A stretch of DNA of 64,000 nucleotides from Schmidtea polychroa (taxonomy: Eukaryota), in NCBI GenBank assembly GCA_044892525.1, contig CM097885.1:235786001-235850000 (forward strand), given 5' to 3'. The position numbers and the translations under genes are program-made. This document shows, piece by piece, positions 2,644 through 62,797 of the stretch. Each line of letters begins with the position of its first letter. Within the stretch, counting starts at the first letter, position 1. The notes beneath the pieces were generated by a model that had not been told where the DNA came from, did not search any database, and was given only the letters and a program-made list of their open reading frames with translations.

Positions 2644-3200
2644 ATGGAATTAGTTCGTAGGAATATTTGTTCAATCATTTACTACGACTTTCGATTTGGA
2701 TTATCTCAAAAACAGTGCATAGATCAACTCACTTCAACTTTTGGCAATGAAGCACCATCAAAAATCACTAAATATTATTGGGTTATTGACTACAGTGGTG
2801 GACGTCGTTCCTTCAAGGACGAATATAAAGAAGGTCGATCAAAATCGGCTGCTGTGTCAGAAAACGTTGATGCTTTGCGCGAATTGATCATGCAAGATTG
2901 TCATGTAACATACCATGAAATCGAACCATCCTTGGACATTAATATGACAAGAATATACTACAAGAATATTTGTTCATGTTGCATTCTGCATGATTTCAAA
3001 ATTGCTCAAAATTGATTTGTATCGATTAGTGCAGAAATTCTTAAAAAATAAAATCGTAGTGCGTCAAATGCTGTGTATAGTATCTACACATTTGATGATT
3101 CTAAGATCTATGCGTATGAATTCGAGAGTAAGCAGCAGTTGACTGTATGAGTCAAGATGAGTCAAGCCCAACAAAATATATATCTATCACCTCAAAATAA
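2644..3200 (+). mobile_element. mariner transposase remnant (HTH region plus decayed first-D region)
   Basis: MELVRRNICSIIYYDFRFGLSQKQCIDQLTSTFGNEAPS...KEGRSKSA...ALRELIMQDCHVTYHEI, followed by a decayed DSKIYAYEFESKQQ (compare GDESWIYAYEPETKQQS). Confidence 0.85.
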
Positions 3201-9849: not shown

Positions 9850-10575
9850 TTTAAATATCTCTTAGAGGAATACATAGCTCATTAATATAGCCAGAGAAAA
9901 TATCTGCATTGACAGTGGAATGAGAGATTGTTTTACAATATAACATCCCACTAAAGGACATGGTCGCAATTTGCAAAATTGAACGTCCCCGAATAGTTGC
10001 GATTTGTACATTGCTGCGAGTTCCTTGTTTAGATCTTGAGTAATATCTTTTAAGATGCAAATTAAATGAAGAATCATCAATGAATATGGCATTGGACATT
10101 TCATTATTGAAATAGTTATTGAACCAGAGAGCATATTCTTTTCGTGCCAAGATTTTTCTGGCATATTGACTCTATCCAATTCTCGATGAGACAATTTCGT
10201 AGTTATTTTTAAATTTTTTAAGGCTCTATTGATTGTCGGAATTGAAATGGAAAAACCATTGCCCTCCTGTTCAAGGATTGCTTTAATCTCTTTTAATGTA
10301 TATTGAGGATTGATGGAGACGATGTTATCAATTTTTACTTGTATTCTTTCCGTAAAAACTGTTTTCTTACTTCCACCCATTTTAGTATGAACGATCACTG
10401 AAGGTGCGGAACTATGGTTAATTTGCAACAGTTCTGGTGCTTCTTTTGTTGTTTTTCCTTGTCTATGAACCATATATATGAAATTCTTCCAGGTTTCGTT
10501 TGAAAGTTTAGTATATTTAACTCTTGGTCTTGAACTATTTGCTGAATTGCTATTGGCTTCGGATATATCCATGGA
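9850..10575 (-). mobile_element. IS630/Tc1-type transposase remnant (frameshifted)
   Basis: HTH-like ...YTLKEIKAILEQEGNGFSISIPTINRALKNLKIT; shifted frame gives AIFIDDSSFNLHLKRYYSRSKQGTR (first-D motif). Confidence 0.8.
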
Positions 10576-11570
10576 TCCAAAGTGGAGAAGTTGAAGCTTA
10601 CGCATTATCCCAAAAAGAATTATGTAGTTCATTGGAGACTTCTCCAGCTTTATCTAAATATTGGGGTAAAAGTCAATAAAATTCATCGCTCTATACAATT
10701 CGAACAATCATCAATATTTAAAAATTATATAGACACTAACACACAACTTAGGGCTTCATCAACAAACACACTAGATAAAAATTCTTTTAAATTATTAAAC
10801 AACAGTAAGTACGGTAAGACTATCGAAAACCTAAAGAAACGAATTAATTGAAGACTTTGTAATTCAGCCCAAAAAGTTTTAACATATTGTTCTAAACCTA
10901 ATTTCATTAAGGATTACTAAAAACGATGACGATTTAATATCTGTTCTATTAAGAAAAGATTTAATATGTTTAAACAGACCAAGGTATATTGGTCAATCAG
11001 TTTTAGATTTATCAAAACTTCGTATGTACCAACTTCAGTACATTGATTTAGAAAAATATCGTCTAGAATTTAATTGTAAAATTAATATAATTGCTGGGGA
11101 TATTGGTTCCTTTTTCTTGGAAATTTAAAATTGCAAATTTAATGCTCTTTTACCAGCAATGATAAGGAATAATTTATTAGATACCTCTAATTATACGTCA
11201 ACGCATTCATTATATTAAAAAGACCTTGACTCTGTAATAGGGAAATTTAAAGATGAGAGCAACGGTCTTGGATATGACGAATGAATATTTTTAAGACCTA
11301 GATGTTCCCCAATTTAGAATAACGAGTAAAACCATCAACTTTTTACTATTAAAAATAATAAGACGGCTCTGACTAATGCTGACGATAAGCGCAATTGGGT
11401 ACTTAAAAATAAAAGTTATGCGCATGGTCATTATAGAAGGGGTGGTATGGTTCTGGCTGGTGATTCTGACGAAAAAATGTTACTACCCATAGACGATGAA
11501 GATTTGTTATATCGTCCTCATTTTCCGAATGATGTTGATGATCGTTATCAATTAATAAATTTTATGATAT
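10575..11570 (+). mobile_element. Polinton/Maverick protein-primed DNA polymerase B fragment (pseudogene)
   Basis: KNYVVHWRLLQLYL...FKLLNNSKYGKTIENLKKR; downstream YIGQSVLDLSKLRMY, a decayed DTDS region, IGKFKDE and DDKR motifs, with stops and frameshifts. Confidence 0.85.
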
Positions 11571-27624: not shown

Positions 27625-30201
27625 TACCAGTCACTTAATCCCCGTCACCTAATCCCCGTCAATTAATCCCCGAGTCACTTAATCCCCGAGTCACTTAATC
27701 CCCGAGTCACTTAATCCCCGAGTCACTTAACTGCTTGATTATTTTACCGCTGTCTGTCACTAATGTTACCGGACACTTTAGCGATTGATGCTTGGTACAT
27801 CTCCAATTCATGTTTCCGTTTAGCGCCTTCTTCTTGAGCCAGAATTCATATCCCTCATGAACTAGCATAGATCTTCCTTTACTCGGGGATTAAGTGACTC
27901 GGGGATTAAGTGACTCGGGGATTAATTGACGGGGATTAAGTGACGGGGATTAAGTGACTGGGGATTAAGTGACCTGTCACCATATATATATAGTTTATAG
28001 TTTATATATAGTTTAATGATTATTCAGTCGCCAATGTTTATTTAATTTTCGAAAAATACAAATTTCCTTTTCCCACGTTTCATATAATTTCATTTAGATA
28101 TGCCCAAGTATTTGAAGACTGTGAAAAATATTTTATTTACAAAAGAAAGCAGTTACTTGATCGCGTTATTGTGTGTTCCATCGATGATTTAATGGCAAAG
28201 TTTCCCAAGGATCATTGTACATTTATTAGAAGTGGTGGGACATTGATGGTACGAATGTGTGATGATGAAACTAATCTCTATCAGCAATTTTTTGTTAACT
28301 CAGATCATCAATTGTTGAAGTAAATATGTTTACAGTTATATGATTTTTAACAAAATATCTAAAATAAATAAAATTTGAAACTTATGCTCAGTGGTATCCT
28401 ACCTGTTTACTTCACCAACTTTTATAAGTGATCTCTATTTTCTATTGAGTTTATTAAACATGTTTTGAATTTATTTAATGTTGAAAATATTCTTTCTTTT
28501 GCCAATGATACTAATGGAAACGTTACAGATATATAATGAAATGCATTTTCAAATATATTTTACATACTTGCACAACTGTACCAAAAGGGTTTATCATTGA
28601 CCCATGCTAGGTGGACGCTCAAAATGGAACTTTTGACATTCACATATAAATTACTATTTTTACTTAGGTAATTTGTATTTCCATATGGCTAAATAATTGT
28701 GAGAATTATGAAATATATCATTAAAAAATATGATTAAACTTATGAAGTACGCTAGAAACTCATTTTACAATGTTTCACTTTGCGTCTTTTTATAATGAAA
28801 CGCAAAAAAATTGAAAAACATTTTTCTGAAGGAAAATACCAGTTACAGTGTTTATTAATTTATTTATGATTCATATTTTAATTAAAATTATTTTATTTTT
28901 AATCCTTTAATTTTTTTATAATATCCTATAAATGAAATGAACCAAAATATTTATAGGCAAATTTTTAATTTTTGACTTAATTTTTGGACAAATTAACCTA
29001 CTTTCCGTGATTGCATTCAGCTGAAATTTGGTAAGTAGATTCGTTGTCAAGAACACTGCATGCTATCAAAATTTCAGATCGATCCGATCACGGAAAGTGG
29101 GTTAATTTTAAAAATTTTGATATGTCAAATCTAGTGTTAATTCCTTATTTCAATATAAATTATTATCTGTTCATTAACTTCGGATTAAAGAGATAACGTA
29201 GTTATATCTAAAACATGTTATATAAGTTATGATTATCATCATAAAATTATTATAATCACATAATTTAGGGTTTCATTTACTCACGCAATAATAAATATTT
29301 CATATCATTGAGAACGCATATTGAAATTTTAGTTTTGAGTGAAATATAGAGAGTTTCAAAAACCATGTTTTCTATCGTTGATTTTTATTTTCTCAATCAA
29401 AAATTATAAAATAAGTACTCATCCAACTAGCTCTTATGTATTTTTTGATAATTAAATGTGTTTTTAAAATTTTTTTTAGCTAAATTTATATTTTTATTCT
29501 GCTTATTTAGTAGTCAAGTGAGGCGCGGATTAAAGAGATAACGTAGTTATATCTAAAACATGTTATATAAGTTATGATTATCATCATAAAATTATTATAA
29601 TCACATAATTTAGGGTTTCATTTACTCACGCAATAATAAATATTTCATATCATTGAGAACGCATATTGAAATTTTAGTTTTGAGTGAAATATAGAGAGTT
29701 TCAAAAACCATGTTTTCTATCGTTGATTTTTATTTTCTCAATCAAAAATTATAAAATAAGTACTCATCCAACTAGCTCTTATGTATTTTTTGATAATTAA
29801 ATGTGTTTTTAAAATTTTTTTTAGCTAAATTTATATTTTTATTCTGCTTATTTAGTAGTCAAGTGAGGCGCGAAATTTTTTCCATTTTTCGAAATTCTAA
29901 TATAAAACAAGATTTCTCCCCTTATAAATTTCATTAAAAAACAAGAGTCGTCTTATATTCAGACCTTTCGATTGTCAGCCATGATTAGACACAGATTAAA
30001 AGGTCATAAACAAATGTATTTTTAAAAAAATATTTTTGTGGAAAAAATATGATTTGTCTTAAATTCAGGCTTATACTGTTAAAAGCAACTTAAGTGATCT
30101 TATTCTTGAACAAAATTACAATTCAAACAAACTAATTTCCATAATTTTGAATATTTCCCTTAAGTTTTTGATGTGCTCACTATTTACAACTTTATCAGTT
30201 A

Positions 30202-30261
<60 letters not shown>

Positions 30262-33200
30262 GTTAAAATATTCTCCATGGTTCACTGAGATGATTAATTT
30301 ATGATTGAAGAATAAATAACAATTTCAACAAGTATTACTGTTACAGAGTTATAATAGATCTAAAACTTTTGTTAATTTTTATTTTAATATGAAAATATTT
30401 AAAAATTTATTTTCGTCTTTTAAATAATGCATAATTTCTCCAATTTCGACAAGCATTTCTTTTAACCCAGATAAACCTACTGTCCTTTTAAAAGGACAGT
30501 AGGTAATCTGTTACAAATTAAAATATATTATCATGAGAACATTATTTTTAATACAATTTTTGATTATGGCGACACTAGATAGTATGGCAATGACAATGCA
30601 TATTTTTTTATAACAAAACTTCCATTATTTGTTATTTGATTTTATTGCTAATTGATATGAAATTTTTTGATGTAATGTTATTATGAGATATATAAACTTC
30701 TTCGGACATAATTAACTAGATTTACTGAAATTAGAAGACAATTTGACGGGTGTCCGTAAAAATAGATATATACAACACATTTCCCCTAAGCGAAAATGGC
30801 GACAAAGAAAAGGATAGTGATATATTCGCGTATCATTGTGTCATTAATAATCAACATAAAAAAATTCGAAAAAATAATATTTCTTTTGTATATTTAATTT
30901 TAAAAATTGAATCCGTCAAATTGACGGGTTCCGTAAATCTAGTGATATAGTTTTATCTTTGTATTTAAGTTGATTTCTTTTATAAAGGACAATAGCACAA
31001 TGAGCTACTTAGAGATTGTGCGCTACACAGTTATTATATTGATATATTGTTATATTTTTAGCATTCGAAAAGGAACCCCTCACAAATTATATATGTTATT
31101 AGAAGAATTGGAGACATATGATCAGTTTGAGGTTCCTAATGAAATTTTCATATTACTGCAAGAGAATGCCAATGACTGTGTTACCGATGAAAATTCTGTG
31201 GAAGAAGATAACGTTATTTTTGATTATTTACATGACAATCAACTTTTAGTTGATGCAGATGTTTTGATGGAAGATTCAGAAAGTGATGATGACTTACCTC
31301 TGAGTAAAATATGTGAAAGATTTCGTCATTCCACTCCAACACTTTCGCATACGTTAAGAAATACCATAATGAGTAAAAGGCGCCAATATAAATGGTCAAT
31401 GAAAGATATTAGTATATCATCACAGCAGTGGAAAGAAATGCAATATTTTTTGAAAAGATATTTGATGATGAAATTTTTGAACTTTTTGTGAAATATTCCA
31501 ATTTATATGCATCACAAAAAATATGACTGGTGATATCTCTATGAACGAAATGAAGTGTTTCATTGGAATATTATTAGTTAGTGGATATGTTGGAGTGCCG
31601 AGACGTAAAATGTATTGGGAGAATACTACAGATGTAGTCATGAAAATTGTTTACAATGCTATGTCAAGAGACAGATTTACGTTTATTATGAAGCATTTAC
31701 ACTGCAACGATAATGCCAATCTAACCAAGAGTCACAACTATTCAAAAGTGAAACCGCTCCTGGACTGTCTGAATGGGAAGTTTTTGAAATACGCGCCTGT
31801 AGAAGAGACTCACAGTGTTGATGAAGCTATGGTTCGATATTATGGATGCCATAGTGGAAAGCAGTTTATTCGGGGGAAACCAATTCGATGGGGGTATAAG
31901 TTTTGGGTTGGAACCACGCACTTGGGATACGTCAATTGGTTTGAACCTTATGAAGGTGCGTCTACAATTCTCTCAGACAAATATAAGGAATTAGGTGCCA
32001 GTGTAATTTTAGTATATTCAGATGTGTTATTGAAACATTTTGGATGTGATTATACATTTCATTTCTATTTTGATAACTTTTTTACTTCAATTCCTCTAAT
32101 GCATGAACTTAAAAATAGAGGCATAAACGCAACTGGTACAATTAGAGAGAATTCTGGATGCTCATTACTAGCCTCTAAACAACTACAAGAAGAGGTAAGA
32201 GGCACCTTTGTTTATAACTCTACCTATGAAGATATCTTGCTATGCAAATGAAATGATAATAATGTCGTGGCTATCAGCTCGAATGCAAATTCCATAAATC
32301 CTATTCGGAAAGTGCAAAGATTTTCCAAGCAACAAAAATGTAGATTAAACATCGATCAACCATATCTCATACAAAAATATAATGAGAATATGGGTTGAGT
32401 TGATAGGTGTGATCAAAAAATAAGTTTATATAGAACTTCGATCCGAGGAAAAAAATGGTACTTTCCACTGATCACACACTGTGTAGACATGGTAAAACAA
32501 AATGCATGGCAGTTACACAGAAAAGCTGCTGGGAAAATGAACCATTTATCTTTCAGACGAAATATTACTCAAGGCCTACTCGAAAGTTACAAAAAACTCC
32601 AAACGAGGACATATAAAGACATCAATTAATTTACATAACCATTCCAGATATGACAATATAGGCATTTTGTTGTCTATAAGAATATACAAGCAAGATGTAA
32701 AGTATGCCACAAAAAGGTAAATTTTGAGTGTAGGAAATGTGAAGTCGCTATGCACTCTAAAAACTGTTTTGAAAATTATCGCACAATAATGTAGTTTTTT
32801 TATTATTTTATTTGTATAAGTGAATGGGAAAAGTTTGTTAAAAATGAAAAATGCTGTAAAAAAATATCATTTTTTGGTAGTTGTCCATTCGTCCTTTTAC
32901 CGTCCTTTTAAAAGAACACCCATTTTCTCGGAAAATATGATAGACACTTTATTTTTATTATTTTTCTCACATTCCTATTCATATATAACCTAAGAATTTG
33001 TAAAAATATTATTGAATATAAGAAAAAAAAAGTTTCAGGAATAACAGGGTTAAAACTGTTACACTATGTTAAAAATTAAAACTTATTTTTAATTAATTAA
33101 ACTTTTTAATTGACATATTTGCATAATAATCATACGTCATTAATTTAAAAAAATCATAATTTATTTAACAAAAACGATTTTTTGACTGTAAAAACAGACT

Positions 33201-51215: not shown

Positions 51216-51217
<2 letters not shown>

Positions 51218-51342
51218 TTGGCATATGTGGGGAAAAAGAAATTTGTTGCATACCTCATCATCTCACATCTCACATACCCTGCATCATTACTCCGCTCAGA
51301 TACTCCCCATACATACACCAAATGATCATGTACATATTCCCA

Positions 51343-51480
51343 CGCATGAGCCCGTGGTGATGTTCCACGTTGGTGCTGCTCACACGGGTTGGAAAAGGTT
51401 AGCAGGTGAGCCTCTGCCTTAAGACTACTCCTAACCCTTTCTCGATACGGGTTCTACGGTGCCTTAGAAGGTCTTACCCC
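51343..51480 (-). other. Conserved structured motif of long LTRs, copy 2
   Basis: Alignable to 4021-4160; stems TAAGAC/GTCTTA, TTCTA/TAGAA and CGTGG/CCACG. Confidence 0.6.
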
Positions 51481-51746
51481 GTCCCACATACACAATTCGG
51501 TCCGACCCTGGTCCAAGGGGACGACCTTGTATTATCACCTACATTCGACATCATCTTTCCACTCGTATCAACTTCGATATCTCACCTGTTAAAATCAATC
51601 ATCAGAAACAATAAAAGATGTATTAACTTATAACAAATCATTACACGCAGAGAAATCAAGAACTGTTTTACATGTAAACATACAGCATTTATAAACACGC
51701 AAGTTCACTTCGGGACCATGCATAGAACAAGGCACCTTTGAATTGA

Positions 51747-52508
51747 TCAATCGAAGGGTTCTCCATCCGCAAGCATTGCGTCGATATCGACCGGCAGTCG
51801 TGGGTTAGAAATGTACTTGATGCCTTCTGCCGGTATTACACGAAAGATTTCCTTTGATGGAATGGAATGGCTGGAGGATATTTCTCTTATGGTAGATTGA
51901 GCTACAGATAGTGACGCCTCGAGAGCAGCCATCGCATCTCGGCGTTTCTGATTTTTCTCGGCTCGGGTCGGCCGTTTCCGTTTGCGAGACGACGGGGGAT
52001 TGTCAGTGTGCGGGGTGACGACGGTTGTCCCCAAGATTGGAGCCAAGATGGGCTCGGTAGGTCTACCTACCAAAGGTTGAGAACCCGATAAGATTGGAGC
52101 TGGAATGGGCGGTAGGCACGATCCATGCCCTTGGCAGCTCGTAGCAGTCGGTTCGGATACTTGATGATGGAGAGGGAAAACGTTCAGTTTCTCTATGACG
52201 GGAAATTCCCGTACCCGCTTGGCGAGTTCTGCCTCCGTATAAACCTTGTGGAGGGCTTCTGATTGGGCTTTGATTGTAAGCCGTTGGCATCGGCTTTCCT
52301 CCAGCAAGCTATCTCTACAATGTTCTAGCCGGAGGATTTTCTTTCGTTCCTCCTTCATTTGTGGCGGGGAGAACCACGTGCCTTCGTAAAGGTCGATTCT
52401 TTTCTTTAAAGCCCCGATGTATAGATGGAGCTGCGCGATATCTGCATTTTTATCCGCGCAGGAGAAACATGGGCGAAGAGTTTTCTCAGCAGTTGTAGGA
52501 GTAGTCAT
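51747..52508 (-). CDS. LTR-encoded hypothetical protein (253 aa): CxxC + predicted coiled coils, Pro-rich linker, basic NLS-like patch
   Basis: Intact, visibly GC-rich ORF in AT-rich DNA. The ATG follows directly after a TTCTCATTCTTTAG acceptor. No family recognised. Confidence 0.65.
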   Translation of the reverse strand: MTTPTTAEKTLRPCFSCADKNADIAQLHLYIGALKKRIDLYEGTWFSPPQMKEERKKILRLEHCRDSLLEESRCQRLTIKAQSEALHKVYTEAELAKRVREFPVIEKLNVFPLHHQVSEPTATSCQGHGSCLPPIPAPILSGSQPLVGRPTEPILAPILGTTVVTPHTDNPPSSRKRKRPTRAEKNQKRRDAMAALEASLSVAQSTIREISSSHSIPSKEIFRVIPAEGIKYISNPRLPVDIDAMLADGEPFD

Positions 52509-53143
52509 CTAAAGAATGAGAAGTCCTTTATTTACATCATTAAAATCCTTTCTACTATTTATTTTCTCTTTATCGTGAGCTTTATCCTACCACATATGCA
52601 TACAATCAGGATTGTCCCCCCACATCCATACCTTTGACATCACTTAACTCATCCAAACCGTAAACCTTCAAATCGACTCATCACATCGTTCGTAATGAAG
52701 AGAAAATGAGAACCATCACACGTTATTTCTCTACTCATATTGATATTGTACCTAGGTTCCTGGGTCGACAGTTATCATCTAATCGCAATAAGTTACTCCT
52801 TACTACTAATATATTTTTTCACTTTTATTTATTATGACCTATTGAAGGTGGGTCTACTCCCTGGTTTTTATGGCTTATTGAGTTATGCCTGCTTTAATTT
52901 AAAAGAAGTAGTTCCATGCTGTTGATACATTTTTGCGCTGTGTTAGGTTAAAACGAATTCGTTAAAATTTATTACAAGTATTTATTTTCCCTCATAAATT
53001 ACAATTTAATTATTTAAATTTTCGCATTTTATGTTGTCATAACGACGCATATTGGTATGTAGTTGTGTACTGGTTTCAGACTCTACCTGATGTGCGCTAA
53101 TGTGTATTATCTCGTTTTACTCAATTATCGCTGTCCTCTCTTA

Positions 53144-54030
53144 CACCAAACACCACTGAGATACATTCTCTATAGTGGTGGTTGGCGTGTAAAGCAATTC
53201 ACTCACTGTATTTACCGATTGGCTATATTTACCAATTAATCATCATCAATTTGAATATGAATTTGATGTTTTTTGGAAATTTATTTTAGCCATTTTAGAA
53301 ATGGCTTTCAGGTAAGATATTTAATTTTAAGTAAAGTTTAAGTCTTGAATTTTGATCCATATAGATATGAGATCATTATTCAAGTTCTTAAATATTACTT
53401 TTAATCAACAATATAATTATAAATTATTTTTAATTAATTTTCAGGCTTTTTAGGAATTTTATGTCTTTTACTAAAGTATTTTGGAATTATTTCGAAAAAA
53501 TGTGAGTCCAATATATTTTTAATTATAATTAATTAAATAAATAAATCAATCAATGTATTTTTTTAAAACATTTTGGGAAAAATCGCTGATTAGAATAATT
53601 TTTTTAATTTTTGTAATTTTTTTTCTGAGCTCAATATGAGGGGATTCTTAAAGGAAATCAAATCTGGAGTAAAAAGATTTTGAACCAAATTCATCTGCTC
53701 TTGATATTTTCATTAAAAATATAATTTAAAAAATTTTCAACGATCTTTTTTTTCTAAAAATTGTCTAAAATAGAATTATTATAGAAATGTATCTCATCGT
53801 TACAATTTTACGAATCAAAAGTTTGTATGTATTTTTTATTATGTGTTGTGCTTGTGTGCATTTTTTAATTTTCCTTCCACTTTTCAGATTTCTATAATAT
53901 AAGATGTATCTCATTGAGCTATAAATGAGAACATCAACGTGAAATCAAAGTAAGTATGTATGTTTCTATAATGTAAGATTATTGATTTTTTTGTTATATT
54001 ATAGGAAATGCATCTCAGTGGTGTTTGGTG
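53144..54030. mobile_element. DNA transposon MITE (887 bp) nested in the long LTR
   Basis: TIR CACCAAACACCACTGAGAT(A/G)CATT, flanked by TA on both sides. Confidence 0.8.
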
Positions 54031-55217
54031 TAACAAATTCTAGACATTGTGTCTGTTAGTGTACTTTGATCTCGTCGCTTATTTATGCATGCCTACTAAC
54101 ACATTCTACTATGACGCAATGATGATGTCGACTCACTCACGTCCCATGTATTAGTGGATTTATCTGTGTGTGGGTTTGGGTCTGCTTATCTCAGTTATAG
54201 CATTATTAGCAGATGGGCTAGACGAACGGAATATAAGGAGTCAGACCTATAGAAATAACGATTGTTATGATTTCAAGATTGCCCAAATCTGTTACCGGGT
54301 AAAAATGGATTTAACTCCTATCTCTCTCGTGAATGTTGACTATTCTCAAAAACCTAATCGTCTCATCTATTTGGCGCATGTCGTTCCACAATCGAACCGC
54401 TGGAATATTTTATCTACGCTACTTGCTTCTCTACAATAGTCGTTTCTCGATCAGATGGAAAATTTATCGATAATTTGTTCGAAATGGTCGATGATAATTT
54501 CCTTTAGGACTGTAGTAAGTACCTATGATTAATTAGAACTTTGCTGTTTACTTTCCTGTCAGGACGAATCCTTCTCGATGACAGTAGTTAATCGAAGGTT
54601 GATAACTAAGTCTCCTACTCGTCAAATGACATATCACCGCGATGGGTTTACTCGCTAACGTTCTCTTAATTTATCAATTCTTAGGAATGTAGAATATTCT
54701 AGATTTTTATCATTCATCAAGAAACGAAAATGGACGTTAGAATTATCAGTGAAGTTCGAGAATTTCATTACCCTCAAGGATAGTCGATATTCACATCCTG
54801 ACGAAAAGAAGTAACCTAGCTCTGAATTGAATATGGCCGAACTCAAACTCGGATTAAATATCGAAAAATGTCGTCGATCTCCTAGAATTTTCAGTCAGCA
54901 CGTTGTCGGCATCGAAAACAGTATCGTTCAGAAGTTTCCTCAATAGAAAGCTTTCGACGGCTAATTTTATAGATAGCACTCGATGAAAAGATCATTGACT
55001 CGATTCGTTTTCTCTCACAGGGTTTCCTCACCCCTCGCAACCCACCCAAGGACAGTACGCATTTCTGCCTACTGCCCTTGGACCGTCGTGAAGGACAACT
55101 CGACCCGACTTATCTCAAATCCTTCTCCAATAATGTGCAATTAATAAATTCATATTACTGTCAAACAAATATGGGAATAATGAAATTAAAAGAAAAATCA
55201 AATAAATAAATGTTTAC

Positions 55218-55277
55218 CTGGCGGCCACGCCATCTGGATTCCGGGTATGATGACTCTTACTAACGTGGGTTTTTATA
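55218..55277 (-). promoter_or_regulatory. Putative LTR promoter: TATA, Inr-like start and splice donor
   Basis: Minus TATAAAAA at 55277-55270, TCAT Inr-like ~55251-55248, donor CAG|GTAAAC at 55218/55217. Confidence 0.5.
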
Positions 55278-58138
55278 CTCCTTTGGTAATCATTGTAATA
55301 CTAATATCCATGCAGACACTTGGCTGGTTCTGTCAATACAATTTCTGGGTATTCACATTCATAAGCTCTCTCTGAAATGCATACGTAATTTAGCCGCATC
55401 ATACCCGAACTCCAAAAGGCGTCGTCGCCAGCATCATAGAGAGAAAGCAACGTCTTTTGTTTTTAAATATAAATTTTATTGAAACATAAAACGTCTGTTG
55501 ATATTAAATTCATAGTAAACATTAAAATTATCATACTAAAATTCAAAACATAATTTACCAAAATTCTCCGAAGGTGTTGGGATTGAAATCAAAGTTTTGT
55601 CAAATTTTTCCTTAGTTAGACTGGTTCTTCTCAACTGGATTCGATCTCGACTATTATTTGCCTCTAAGTACTATCTGTTATGTCCAAGTATGAATATCGT
55701 TCGTAAGTCTGTGCTCGTGAGTGGTTCCTAGCTTCGTCCTGTAGAGTTTCGGGTTAGAATGATGATGATTTTAAATAAATTTTACCTGTAGAGTTTCGGG
55801 TTAGAATGATACTCTACAGAGTTTTGTTGCTCTTTATATATTATTTTCCGTCCAATCAGGACACACCTTGCTTGTAATTTTGTTATTTATTATTATTTTA
55901 TGTTTTTCTTATCGTAGTATATTATATTTTAATGACCCTACCTATTTCTATTATTGTTTTATTTATTTTCCTATTTTTTATTATTTTTCTCCTATTTTTC
56001 TGTGGTTTTATTGCTATTTTATTGTAACTTCATTTTTTGTTTTAATTAACCTTATGGATGATTTTATTTTTATTTTGTTTTTCCTTTAGTTTTCGTTTGT
56101 TTTTCTTAAATTTTGTGCCATTTTATTTCTCTTTTACTGTTGTGCTCATTGGGTGCCTTCCCTTTTGTCTTATTTCCCCTTTACAGGTTTTGTTATTTTA
56201 TTTAGTTATTCTTGTTTCTTTATGGATGTTTAATTTGTTTCTCCTATGTTTCCCGTAATTTTTATATGTTTTTATTTTATTTACTCTATCTCTTCCTGGG
56301 TTCGTTTTTCCAACACCNNNNNNNNNNNNNNNNNNNNNNNNNNNNNNNNNNNNNNNNNNNNNNNNNNNNNNNNNNNNNNNNNNNNNNNNNNNNNNNNNNN
56401 NNNNNNNNNNNNNNNNNNNNNNNNNNNNNNNNNNNNNNNNNNNNNNNNNNNNNNNNNNNCAACCAGATAAGAAAGGGGTAATTCAACTCGATTATGCCAA
56501 TTATTGCCCAATGTACGTATCACCTGTTAAACGAAATTCTTTTTTTTATAAAATATTATTTGGAACCACCAAAGTTTTACTTTTTTCCTGAATGAATCAT
56601 CTCCAAAAGGCATCAAAGATAAATGGATAAACTCAGAAATGGCCTTTCGAAGTCAACAAATTTTTTTAAAATTTAATATTTACTAGTTAATAAAAACCAA
56701 TTTTTATACTTGAATTAATTAATTATTTTAATATTAGTAGTTAATTAAACCGATTAATTAATTAATTTACAAAATATTATTTTATTATTATATATTATCT
56801 CATTATTGATCAATTACTTTATGCATTTACTTTCCTGGTCAAAATTATTCAATTAATTATTTCATTGATTTTGTGTCGATTTTTATATATAGAAATAATT
56901 AAAATTGATTGATTTATTTATTAATTAATTGTATCAATCTGATATGTAAGAAATATTCAATGGTAAAATAAAATTCGTTAGGAAATTTATTTGAATAAAA
57001 AATATCTACGGAAAGCAGAGAAAATTATTAAAATTATTTCGCAACCGGAATTCGATAACTGATTAATTAAAAATGATAAATATTTCTTCCGTGTTAAATA
57101 CATAACTAAAAATGCATTGATTTGAAAAAAAATAAAAGAAGATCAACGAAAATATTCATATACGACTCCAGTAAAACAAAAGTGACACTAATATTATTAA
57201 TTAAATAGAAAAGGTGCTGTGTCACAGTATCGAATTAACGTTCCAAGCTAGCCTGGAGCGAGATTTCACCACCAGTCACTAGCAAATTCAATTTAGTTCA
57301 AATCAGACAAATTCTCTGATATCTGAAACAATTAGCAGACCCCTTTTGATTAAAAGAACGAACTGAACGACCTCGACGGTCTACTCTAGTTTCCTATTGG
57401 AATGTAGTCGGCTTCTATAGACGCAAAGCAGATTCGCCTCGGGCGATAATCGTCAATTGACTAGGATGACGGAAATTATTATTTTTTTCATTATACTACT
57501 CACATAATTGATTTAACCTTTGAATAATGGATAATTATTATGTTAACCGAGGATGGGAAAAATTTCAGATTTTGTTGTATTTTATAGCCATTCCCATTGA
57601 TATTTACCTCTCTCCAGTGAGATCAAATATTTTTTATCAAAAATTTCAAGTGAAAAAACAGTGCTGAAAATTTGTGTTACATTGGAAAAAATTATCTATA
57701 TATTTGTAATAAAAATAAATGAAATGTTAAAAGAATAAAAAAGGATTTTATTGAATTTTAAAATTTAAATTATTAAATTTTTTTTCGTTGATTTTGTTTT
57801 AGTGTAAAATGTTAGTATTAAGTTTTAAGTTCTCGTGAATAATAAAAAAAGAACATCCGGGCTGTATAAAATTGTGTAGGTTTTGCTAAAATAAGTAGTA
57901 CATGTTATGCATTGAGTACATGAGTGGATAAAGAATTTTTTTCTGGGACAGGCAGCTTAATAAATTATAGAGAAACAAGTAAATATATTTTACATTTCCC
58001 TCCTTTTTTTCACTAATCTAATTAAGTTCTCATGAAATTAATATTTTATTTTTATTCAAAATAATTGAATTGAAGATTCTCCTTGCGTAATTATATTATT
58101 AGTCATAAGTATAGAACACTGCAAATACTTTTCATTAA

Positions 58139-60679: not shown

Positions 60680-62797
60680 AGTGGTAATGCTAAGTGGTCT
60701 ATATTTGGGATGTAATTGGTTACTTTTAAAGCAACACAAGTCTCGGAATTGTCACTAGCCATTCTGTTTCTGCCAGAAACTTTCTGGTTTTGGTTAAAAT
60801 TACATTCATTTGAGAAAATAAGAATTCGCAAAAGTAAGTTGAAGGAAATACTGTTAATACAGCTATTGCTAGCTTTTTTAATGATGAAAACTGATTTGGA
60901 AGACTTTGCCACAACTTTAGAACTTCATCGTCCATGTTAAATGTTATATCATTTTCTCTTAATTGACTTTCGACCATTATTCTAAAATCTACAAATTTTT
61001 CACGCCAAATCAAACTGGCTTGGAATTCTAGCAGTTCACTATCGAAATCGTCAAAGTCTAGCATTCTAAATTCACCGAAATTATTGTCCGGAATAAACTT
61101 GTCAGGATATCGGATAAACTTAATTAAATGTTCGATTCTTTTAATATGTTGGAATCGATTTTCAAATGATTCTTGTGTACTTTATATAATTTTACGAAAT
61201 TCAACAAAAATATCTTGTAGGTTTTTTTCTCCTATGTCAGTATTTTTGAAAAAAAATTTAAATTTGGAAAATATTTCAATTCTTCATAATTTGTTTCTAA
61301 TTTTTTTAAGTCATTTTCAATTAATTTTAGTTTCATTTCAAAAGTATTAATGTGTCCAAATAAAATATCCAATGATTTTCCATAACCTTGCAGTTTCTTG
61401 TTTAATTCATTCAAATTTATAGTAAAATCAGTTAAGAACATTAACTTTAGTAACCATCTAGTATCGGTAAGCTCTGTAATTATTTTTTTTGTCATGTAAA
61501 AAAAGACGAATTTCATCCAAGCATAAAACAAATCTTTCCAAAGATAATGCGCGACTAAGCCATCGAACGTGATACAATGAAAACCCAAAACAGGGTGACC
61601 GATTTCATTTTGTAGTAATACTTGGAATCCTGAATCTTTACCTACCATACTGGGGCACCCATCAGTAGAAATTGAGCATATTTTTTTAATATCAATGTTC
61701 GAATCAATTAATGAATTTTTTACAATTTCAAAAATGTCAACGACCCTTGTTCGCTCTGGCCAAGTTTCCAACTTTAATAATTCTTCACGCATTTTTCCTT
61801 CTGTAGTATATCGTACAGTTATTGCTAGCCTTGTATCTAAGTTGATATCCGTACTTTCATCAACGCCGATAGCGAATAACTCAGATGAGCAAATATCTGA
61901 TTTTAACTGGGAAAAATTATTTTCCCGTAATTTTGATATTCTATCTTTAACCGTATTTGGGCTCAGTTGAACGTTTTTAATGCGCATGATTATTTTATCT
62001 TTATTATCGAAGTCTTCAAAAAGTTTTTCAGCACAATTCAAAAGAGTATTTTTCAAAAAATCACCATCAGTAAATGGTTTTCTGTGTTTAGCAATTTCGT
62101 TTGCTATATTAAAACTAGCGGCAGTTATATTACTTGTCGATTTTACAAATTTGTTCATATTACTTGATTGGCAGTGAAGATTCTCAATTTTTTTCGAAAA
62201 ACATTGTTTTCTTTCTTCCAAATTTAATTTTGCAATCGATGAATGGCTGGATTCAAAATGACGTTTAACTGATGATGTACGAAAAACTACAGATATGATA
62301 CATAAAACACAATGTGCTTTGCCATTCTTTTCAATCATCCCATAAAGAAATTTCCAAGAATCTTGAAATGAATATTTACGATTATCTGTTGAAGTTTTAT
62401 TCATTTTGAACGGCTAATAATAAAAACCAAACTAAAATAAAAACTTAACAAAAACAAAAAAAACTTATTAAATGTAATTCAGTGAAATATTCTTAAAGTT
62501 TTCTGAGCGAATTTTTTCAAACGTTTTCGTTTTCTTTATTATTATAATATTCAAAATATCAAAAAAAGATTATATTTTTAAACAAAAAACTAGGACTAGG
62601 TAAAGCACAAATATTTCTAACAAACAAAAAAAATCAGTAAATAATAATACAACTCACTGAAATATCAAAAAATTATCTTAATGATTGAAAGTAAAAAAAA
62701 TAAATAATAAAATCTATATTTGCGACAAAATTTATTTTTTCATATTTTTATCATGCGTGCCAATCTTGGCACGCGTGCCACGTAATTGCGAACACTG
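60680..62797 (-). mobile_element. hAT transposon (Charlie/Buster/SPIN group, GTF2IRD2-like transposase), internally deleted and frameshifted
   Basis: BED-like CVLC...KRHFESSH, AIGVDESTD, ISTDGCPSM, FHCI, LNELNKKLQG and FPSTYFCEFLFS. 5' terminus CAGTGTTCGCAA ends at 62797; the other terminus was not found. Confidence 0.9.

Follow-up and report, generated by a model that had tools for sequence, protein, structure and literature searches.

The planarian Schmidtea polychroa carries an open reading frame (ORF) of 253 amino acids (aa) that is under strong purifying selection and lies wholly inside the long terminal repeat (LTR) of a Burro-type gypsy retrotransposon. The copy analyzed here is on the minus strand of a window of 64,000 nucleotides (nt) from assembly GCA_044892525.1 (contig CM097885.1, forward-strand positions 235,786,001 to 235,850,000), where the LTR covers 51216–56317 and the ORF 51747–52508. 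All features of the LTR described below are on this minus strand unless stated otherwise. We regard it as virtually certain that this LTR gene is real.

The identity of the element was established from its siblings. The 781-Mb genome was searched with the ORF region, which gave 1,331 candidates; 40 of these were scored, and several occurred as pairs or a triple with a spacing of 24–27 kb. The interval 51216–56317 aligns to both ends of four full sibling elements and of one further pair. In these five pairs the LTRs are direct, 99.5–99.98% identical and bounded by TG...CA ends, and the target duplications of the siblings are 4 bp long. An 18-nt primer site, located 6 nt after the 5' LTRs, matches the genomic tRNA-Pro(TGG). 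The siblings measure 30.6 kb (~31 kb), with a polyprotein of 4,624 codons counted from the first ATG. Pfam identifies gag, a zinc knuckle, a fusion glycoprotein, protease, reverse transcriptase (RT), RNase H, integrase and ankyrin repeats in one frame of the sibling interior, that is, the gypsy order protease-RT-RNase H-integrase with the glycoprotein (env) ahead of the protease, and RING and MATH domains in accessory ORFs. Of the ankyrin, MATH, BIR and BCL2-like cargo of Burro, ankyrin and MATH domains were found in the seven sibling frames scanned, and BIR and BCL2-like cargo was not found at E 0.001. The review section on Burro (GYPSM1) agrees in size (about 30 kb or more), multi-kb LTRs, a single frame of 4,600–5,100 aa with env between gag and pol, and ankyrin repeats plus RING and MATH cargo (PMC6431247); it mentions neither an LTR ORF nor an LTR intron, and MATH is here a separate downstream ORF. 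We conclude that 51216–56317 is the LTR of a ~31-kb Burro-type gypsy element.

A first-pass annotation, made from the letters of the window alone, had pointed to the giant Burro elements of planarians, and the siblings confirm this type, as they confirm that the interval is one LTR with its 3' end at 51216 and not the ends of different elements. The TGTTGG at 56315, which had been taken for the other terminus, turned out to be an internal repeat. Sibling LTRs end in CCAACA and begin with TGTTGG 18 nt 5' of 56317, so the true start lies about 18 nt past that position, where the window reads N; the 5' target duplication of the window copy is hidden by the same N. Both ends could be located in 31 sibling LTRs, which are 4.0–4.4 kb long. 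Among 50 LTRs with both ends found (from 100 LTR stretches), 34 are solo with a target duplication. The window LTR is probably solo too, because no primer site lies behind it, and its flanks and the next 10 kb have no match to the element interior.

The ORF begins at the ATG at 52508 and ends at 51747, as first annotated, and is indeed GC-rich (51% GC, against 29% for the window). Both LTRs of the siblings contain it, in the orientation of gag-pol. Genome-wide, 1,419 sites match an 18-nt motif that stands for its RPCFSC stretch, against a single occurrence of a control. No internal stop was found in 141 of the 150 best protein matches among 7,166 candidates, a sample biased toward whole copies. 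We also sampled by position, using 60 of the first 72 listed motif sites (12 were skipped as presumed already sampled or duplicated): 26 copies passed the length test and about 23 were whole on inspection. The ORF is open among broken neighbors, as had been pointed out, but this partly reflects youth, since the nearest siblings of the window copy are 96–99% identical and only the ~23 of 60 sampled copies are whole. The genome-wide LTR comparison suggested at first pass spoke clearly for selection. Pairwise dN/dS (nonsynonymous over synonymous divergence) was 0.04–0.21 between subfamilies where computable, and so not near 1, among 15 subfamily representatives picked from the top matches; for residues 13–112 it was 0.024 at a dS of ~1.6. 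A second protein group has the same length and layout at 35–38% identity (the groups are referred to below as A and B). A chance or neutrally carried frame, which the more than half of position-sampled copies that are broken might suggest, is refuted by this constraint and by the retention of frame and length down to 35% identity, and its probability is close to nil.

Next, we considered how the ORF is expressed. The two protein groups share a promoter-like layout 560 nt upstream of the promoter named in the first-pass annotation: a reverse CCAAT box (ATTGG, 55852–55856), whose spacing to the TATA box is equal in both groups, a conserved TATA box (55833–55840), an initiator at +30 and, behind it, a ~25-nt exon with a GT donor at its end. 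The TATA box served as an anchor in 71 of 101 LTR stretches, two of them false, and 56 of the 69 true anchors have the GT donor at a fixed place after it. The predicted exon 1 (25 nt, 55786–55810) starts 30 nt after the start of the TATA box, holds a branch-point-like motif and ends in CAG before GTAAAA. This layout of promoter, exon and donor persists among proteins that are just 35–38% identical. Transcription would thus start at 55810, and a large intron is predicted from 55785 to 52509, ~2.4 kb long in siblings free of insertions. No reading frame is common to the LTR copies within it, and a second gene inside the intron was accordingly rejected.

At the other end of this predicted intron, a 3' splice site (52509–52523) stands directly ahead of the ATG. 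The acceptor CTTCTCATTCTTTAG ending at 52509 is present as first described, and a YAG within 12 nt of the ATG is kept in 55 of 56 copies; in 51 of the 56 it is joined by a pyrimidine tract, compared with 188 of 2,512 control ATGs. The zero spacing between AG and ATG holds in 27 of the 56 copies, but in 28 the spacing is 1–10 nt and one has no YAG. A CAG|GTGAG after the ORF was also considered as a conserved site and discarded, as it is not kept in relatives. We judge it likely that the ORF's mRNA is spliced from exon 1. The first-pass junction of 55218 to 52508 is unsupported; conservation instead places the promoter at 55840 and the donor at 55785. Beside these signals we also count that of a 159-aa RING-finger ORF in the leader behind a sibling's primer site (L044:7659-8138), which has a layout like that of the LTR gene, with a TTTAG acceptor 2 nt ahead of its ATG.

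Two poly(A)-like signals are conserved. Of 34 LTRs, 32 have the first, AATAAA (55475–55480 in the window), 215–385 nt past the donor, where shuffled sequences give a mean of 6.6 and a maximum of 15; since 25 of the 34 also contain the reverse motif, base composition explains part of this signal. The second lies ~120 nt after the stop, as AATACA in the window (51619–51624) and AATATA or AATAAA in relatives, and 23 of 25 LTRs have AATA[ACT]A 105–175 nt past the stop, against a mean of 2.3 and at most 8 in shuffles. AATATA has been proposed as a flatworm poly(A) signal (PMC4558846). Taken together, the two signals suggest that the first marks the border of R and U5 and that the ORF lies in U5 with a 3' end of its own, with U3 of ~0.5 kb, R of ~0.35 kb and U5 of more than 3 kb. 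The gene in U5 would then be complete in a solo LTR.

The inner promoter proposed at first pass has another explanation. Its TATA box TATAAAAA is present at 55277–55270, but it is intact in only 1 of 17 aligned representatives, the window's own subfamily, and lies in the loop of an RNA stem. Likewise, the letters of the ~33-nt exon ending in CAG|GTAAAC at 55218 are there, but they form the 3' arm of this covarying stem and not an exon. Stem 1 (55218–55431; arms ~55431–55397 and 55255–55218) is ~40 bp long, the supposed exon pairing with a block 144 nt upstream. It has a z score of -4.3 and compensatory changes, and in 17 of 19 LTRs the sense strand forms it more stably than the antisense strand. 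The 3' arm keeps the GT in 14 of the 17 representatives. As a coding first exon it was rejected: an ATG is found in 9 of 17, and it is out of the ORF's frame in the window. Stem 2 (55025–55098) is a covarying hairpin with a z score of -4.6, and both sides changed in 12 of its 24 pairs across 17 sequences. Both stems lie inside the predicted large intron.

Exon 1 is accompanied by a duplicate. In the window, a predicted 47-nt mini-intron (55739–55785) is made up of the donor, a spacer and an exact second copy of exon 1 (55763–55739). Among the 56 anchored LTRs with a donor, exon 1 recurs 44–54 nt downstream, identical to its own copy in 44 and with at most one mismatch in 53. The 27 distinct exon-1 sequences have a mean ungapped identity of 54% to one another, and 23 of them hold a YTRAY motif. 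The repeat starts at +29 to +31 from the TATA box in 47 of 55 cases and ends at the donor or a few bases past it. Private variants appear in both exon-1 copies (L104; L108 compared with L116; L092), and the base ahead of the exon-1 copy can be any of the four letters among 10 close siblings. The repeat unit is intact in 88 cases against nine precise losses, and in none of 89 is it triplicated.

This match of the duplicate to its own copy, family by family, suggests that the mini-intron is spliced from genomic RNA and re-templated at each replication, an idea towards which we lean. We hypothesize that the donor alternatively joins an acceptor 47 nt away, which would remove or weaken the donor and give the genomic RNA. 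Reverse transcription to the cap would then copy exon 1, and the product would anneal at the downstream copy of the unspliced 3' end and overwrite it, while the unspliced 3' LTR would restore the donor. In the 3'-LTR context only, folding predictions pair a U3 arm (55811–55819) with the final 9 nt of exon 1, the unpaired probability falling from 0.71 to 0.07 in 16 group-A LTRs, with no effect in 10 group-B LTRs.

We predict that the protein dimerizes through a coiled coil capped by a CxxC, and that it also carries a basic helix and an acidic tail. Its features are a CxxC (residues 14 and 17), helices at 17–42 and 50–101, an HH...CxxH/C pattern, a Pro-rich linker, a basic helix (175–213) and an acidic-hydrophobic tail. 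AlphaFold2 gives helices at 17–42, 50–101 and 182–213 with a disordered linker and tail; the compact C-terminus described at first pass is not recovered, with residues 217–246 and 249–253 at a predicted local distance difference test score (pLDDT) below 50. Residues 10–130 are modeled as an in-register parallel homodimer with both cysteines at the interface (score 0.61, against 0.01 for the best control; pLDDT 79–80), and the runs agree in at least 90% of contacts. The mark used for dimers was reached by 21 of 30 solved pairs and none of 23 single chains (17 of 29 and none of 30 among eukaryotes), a calibration that zinc makes rougher. In all 19 proteins, across groups with unlike neighboring sequence, the C-terminal 22 residues hold 5–9 acidic residues around a hydrophobic-D-hydrophobic-D/E pattern.

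Homology searches placed the protein in no described family. Word-based searches gave no match for the window protein, and atlas scores reached at most 0.83. Pfam had none for it and only weak coiled-coil matches for its relatives. With the window protein and its N-terminal domain, PDB sequences gave one match at E 0.27 and Foldseek none at E 0.001, and no homology to Rev or Rex was detected in Pfam, PDB sequences or folds. A profile search returned 12 proteins, of which 11 are credible; in many, the helical module is followed by an Arg-rich stretch. The match of P0013 was discounted as driven by repeats. P0002–P0012 share the module, and 10 of these 11 are fused to unrelated proteins (transporter, furin-like, phosphatase, actin, hAT). 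The fusions probably arose when gene models in a related genome took in LTRs of this kind and so became chimeras.

Our model suggests that the transcript starting at 55810 has its 25-nt exon joined to the acceptor at 52509, which would remove the first poly(A) signal and both stems, and that the mRNA ends near 51600. Its product, a dimeric basic protein resembling Rev or CERV, would let intron-containing element RNA escape splicing or leave the nucleus. The least certain step is that the protein would bind the stems kept in the unspliced RNA. Rev-type control works with a spliced mRNA, a basic protein that dimerizes and structured RNA in the intron that splicing takes out, all of which are predicted here. 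The Arg-rich stretches of distant homologues, one of which has a weak Pfam REV match, also point this way. We favor this role over others tentatively, at somewhat below an even chance, and the gene model together with the Rev-like role deserves the same caution. CERV, of the C. elegans gypsy element Cer1, is described as exerting Rev-type control of element RNA, and Rev as binding a structured region of unspliced RNA (PMC10309623). As portrayed there, CERV resembles the present protein in being element-encoded, made from a spliced mRNA and equipped with a dimerization motif, a basic nuclear signal and cysteines, splicing, dimerization and any nuclear role being predictions here; Cer1 has a tRNA-Pro primer site as well. 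We see no sequence link to CERV, Rev or Rex, and the function proposed here is deduced from sequence.

Several observations count against parts of this model. Contigs of three presumed-RNA runs and one run of unknown kind, compared with a sibling LTR and leader, show no splice joint at either donor among the joints listed, beyond which there are 17 more. A single contig of 180 nt runs unspliced through U3, the donor and the mini-intron, and could stem from DNA or from the end of a 3' LTR. A search of the genome for copies devoid of the intron gave none for either donor, with 630 matches to a control pattern. The poly(A) windows were picked after the data had been seen, and the families compared are related. 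LTRs devoid of the mini-intron were rejected as proof of splicing: in one element, only the 5' LTR is without it (L181 and L182, otherwise 99.9% identical; L183 and L184 both lack it), and a loss confined to one LTR needs no splicing. A GT follows the second exon-1 copy in 8 of 56 LTRs, seven of them in group B. The donor-masking hairpin was dropped as a universal feature, being restricted to group A, and the donor's own accessibility barely shifts (0.49 to 0.42). A strand-transfer breakpoint at the exon copy is weakened too, as analysis of how LTR parts are inherited undercuts an earlier correlation. The ORF recombines freely relative to the stems (rho 0.02–0.12), which follow U3 (0.60); thus, the protein and its proposed target are not co-inherited, and that line of support was abandoned. 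Coiled coils may pass the dimer test generically. One distant homologue has a Pfam REV match at E 0.0013, under the cut-off and probably compositional. No nuclear export signal conserved across groups was seen by eye against the usual consensus. Finally, the acidic tail would fit an activation domain equally well.

This last point leads to the alternative that survives best. With the same gene model, the protein could be a Tas- or Tat-like transactivator that dimerizes by its coiled coil, binds DNA or RNA through the basic helix and boosts LTR promoters in trans by means of an acidic activation tail. The tail found in all 19 proteins and conserved across groups, with a likeness to viral activation domains that we assume, points this way, as do the parallel dimer predicted for residues 10–130 and the conservation of U3, which in group-A families exceeds that of all other LTR parts (mean 0.81). 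However, the basic helix is separated from the coiled coil by ~70 disordered residues, unlike in bZIP proteins, no DNA-binding family was matched in Pfam, PDB or fold searches, and the RNA stems in the retained intron are left unaccounted for. We consider a transactivator a close rival, only a little less probable than the Rev-like role.

It is rather improbable that the protein is directed at the host or functions in the particle, as an anti-silencing factor, cell-fate modulator or RNA chaperone comparable to the RING/TRAF cargo, its place in the LTR only raising the dose. Such a role would fit the RING and RING-MATH accessory ORFs of siblings, the reported ties of Burro cargo to apoptosis and ubiquitination (PMC6431247) and the reported rise of Burro RNA on PIWI knock-down (PMC8532177). 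However, no host homologue was found, the 11 credible relatives being the same module alone or fused to unrelated proteins.

Still less probable is that the acceptor is served by another route (spliced-leader trans-splicing, an inner promoter or read-through) and that slippage and selection, not splicing, maintain the likeness between exon 1 and its duplicate. The missing junction in the contig joints listed and the missing intron-less copy would be expected, flatworms are reported to trans-splice (PMC4558846), some families carry decayed extra exon-like units downstream (L139, L171), so expansions do occur, and a unit can collapse in one LTR only. In contrast, the GT donor keeps its fixed place in most true anchors, the repeat borders fall at the predicted start site and donor with no triplicated unit, and the inner TATA box is subfamily-specific.

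LTRs with coding sequence are known from mouse mammary tumor virus (sag) and human immunodeficiency virus (nef), where it lies in or overlaps U3, upstream of the promoter, and foamy virus accessory genes are located upstream of or overlap U3. The first-pass comparison with sag and nef holds for coding in an LTR but is inexact in placement, because the present ORF lies downstream of the conserved TATA box and the first AATAAA, in what we take as U5, and has its own 3' signal; the start site behind this distinction is a prediction. The foamy virus LTR is closer in another respect, as its major splice donor lies upstream of the poly(A) signal and is blocked by a 3'-LTR-specific structure (PMC3694450), comparable to the hairpin predicted in group-A LTRs; the abstract of that work describes no duplicated first exon, mini-intron or U5 gene. 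ORF0 of rice Retrosat2/RIRE3 (PMC3485330) and the extra ORFs of Ogre elements are likewise orphan ORFs ahead of gag in elements with LTRs longer than 3 kb. However, LTR, ORF0 and ORF1 are presented as separate parts in Retrosat2/RIRE3, and ORF0 evolves faster than the polyprotein (PMC3485330). No title or abstract found in our literature survey describes a gene wholly in U5, a Burro-LTR ORF or a duplicated first exon; the original Burro description (Grohme 2018) and Repbase were outside the survey and may already show the LTR ORF. The element type is already known, and a U5 gene and a duplicated first exon are unreported in the literature surveyed.

LTRs usually count as control regions that code for nothing, and a solo LTR as dead for coding. 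Here, an LTR accommodates a whole gene that is strongly selected and has a predicted promoter, intron and poly(A)-like signal. The first-pass view of an LTR-autonomous accessory gene therefore stands for the gene, its acceptor and its own poly(A)-like signal, but not for the promoter, first exon and junction then proposed. Expression from solo LTRs, also suggested there, is plausible given that most end-defined LTRs are solo, and these could provide a regulator that acts in trans on an element family of very high abundance. In the exon-1 duplicate, which changes in concert with exon 1, the sequence itself would document where transcription starts and where the donor lies. The duplicate also hints at how a splice donor can be retained in an RNA genome for which splicing must remain the exception. 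The fullest version of our model is a switch like that of complex retroviruses run wholly from the LTR, with a U5 gene expressible from hundreds of solo LTRs, a Rev-like regulator, and genomic RNA spliced once via the 47-nt intron and its exon-1 copy rewritten at each cycle. In its entirety, this remains speculative and unlikely.

The window LTR is interrupted at 53144–54030 by an insertion of 887 bp that has inverted repeats at its termini and a duplicated TA, and that is absent from the siblings compared. The ~2.7-kb intron length given at first pass included these 887 bp and is thus an overestimate for the element. A hairpin in the insertion (53334–53394) matches mir-753 of Rfam at 55.4 bits and E 7e-11, the gathering score being 62, which hints that this microRNA family derives from a transposon.

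Elements represented by L031–L034 and L039–L042 have interiors that are 95% identical and LTRs that are mostly unalignable; thus, LTR parts have been swapped or evolve far faster. After the polyprotein of one element (L046:2837-7099) there are a RING-MATH (TRAF-like) ORF and three ORFs of 212–253 aa with no Pfam match. In L032-L033 and three other elements, an acceptor-like site lies 580 nt ahead of the first gag ATG; next comes an 80-codon frame in three of four elements and then 107 ATG-less open codons in the gag frame. A tandem array of tRNA-Pro(TGG) genes with 475-bp spacing lies at G000:C1:130.90-130.95 Mb (L190–L192), and the array's 3' motif has 2,164 matches genome-wide.

Elsewhere in the window, broken transposase-like frames, by eye mariner-, piggyBac- and hAT-like, lie at 2644–3015, 9862–10632, 31000–32251 and 60726–62404. 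At 27627–27961, two 81-nt inverted arms built from 16-nt repeats are 99% complementary and stand 173 nt apart.

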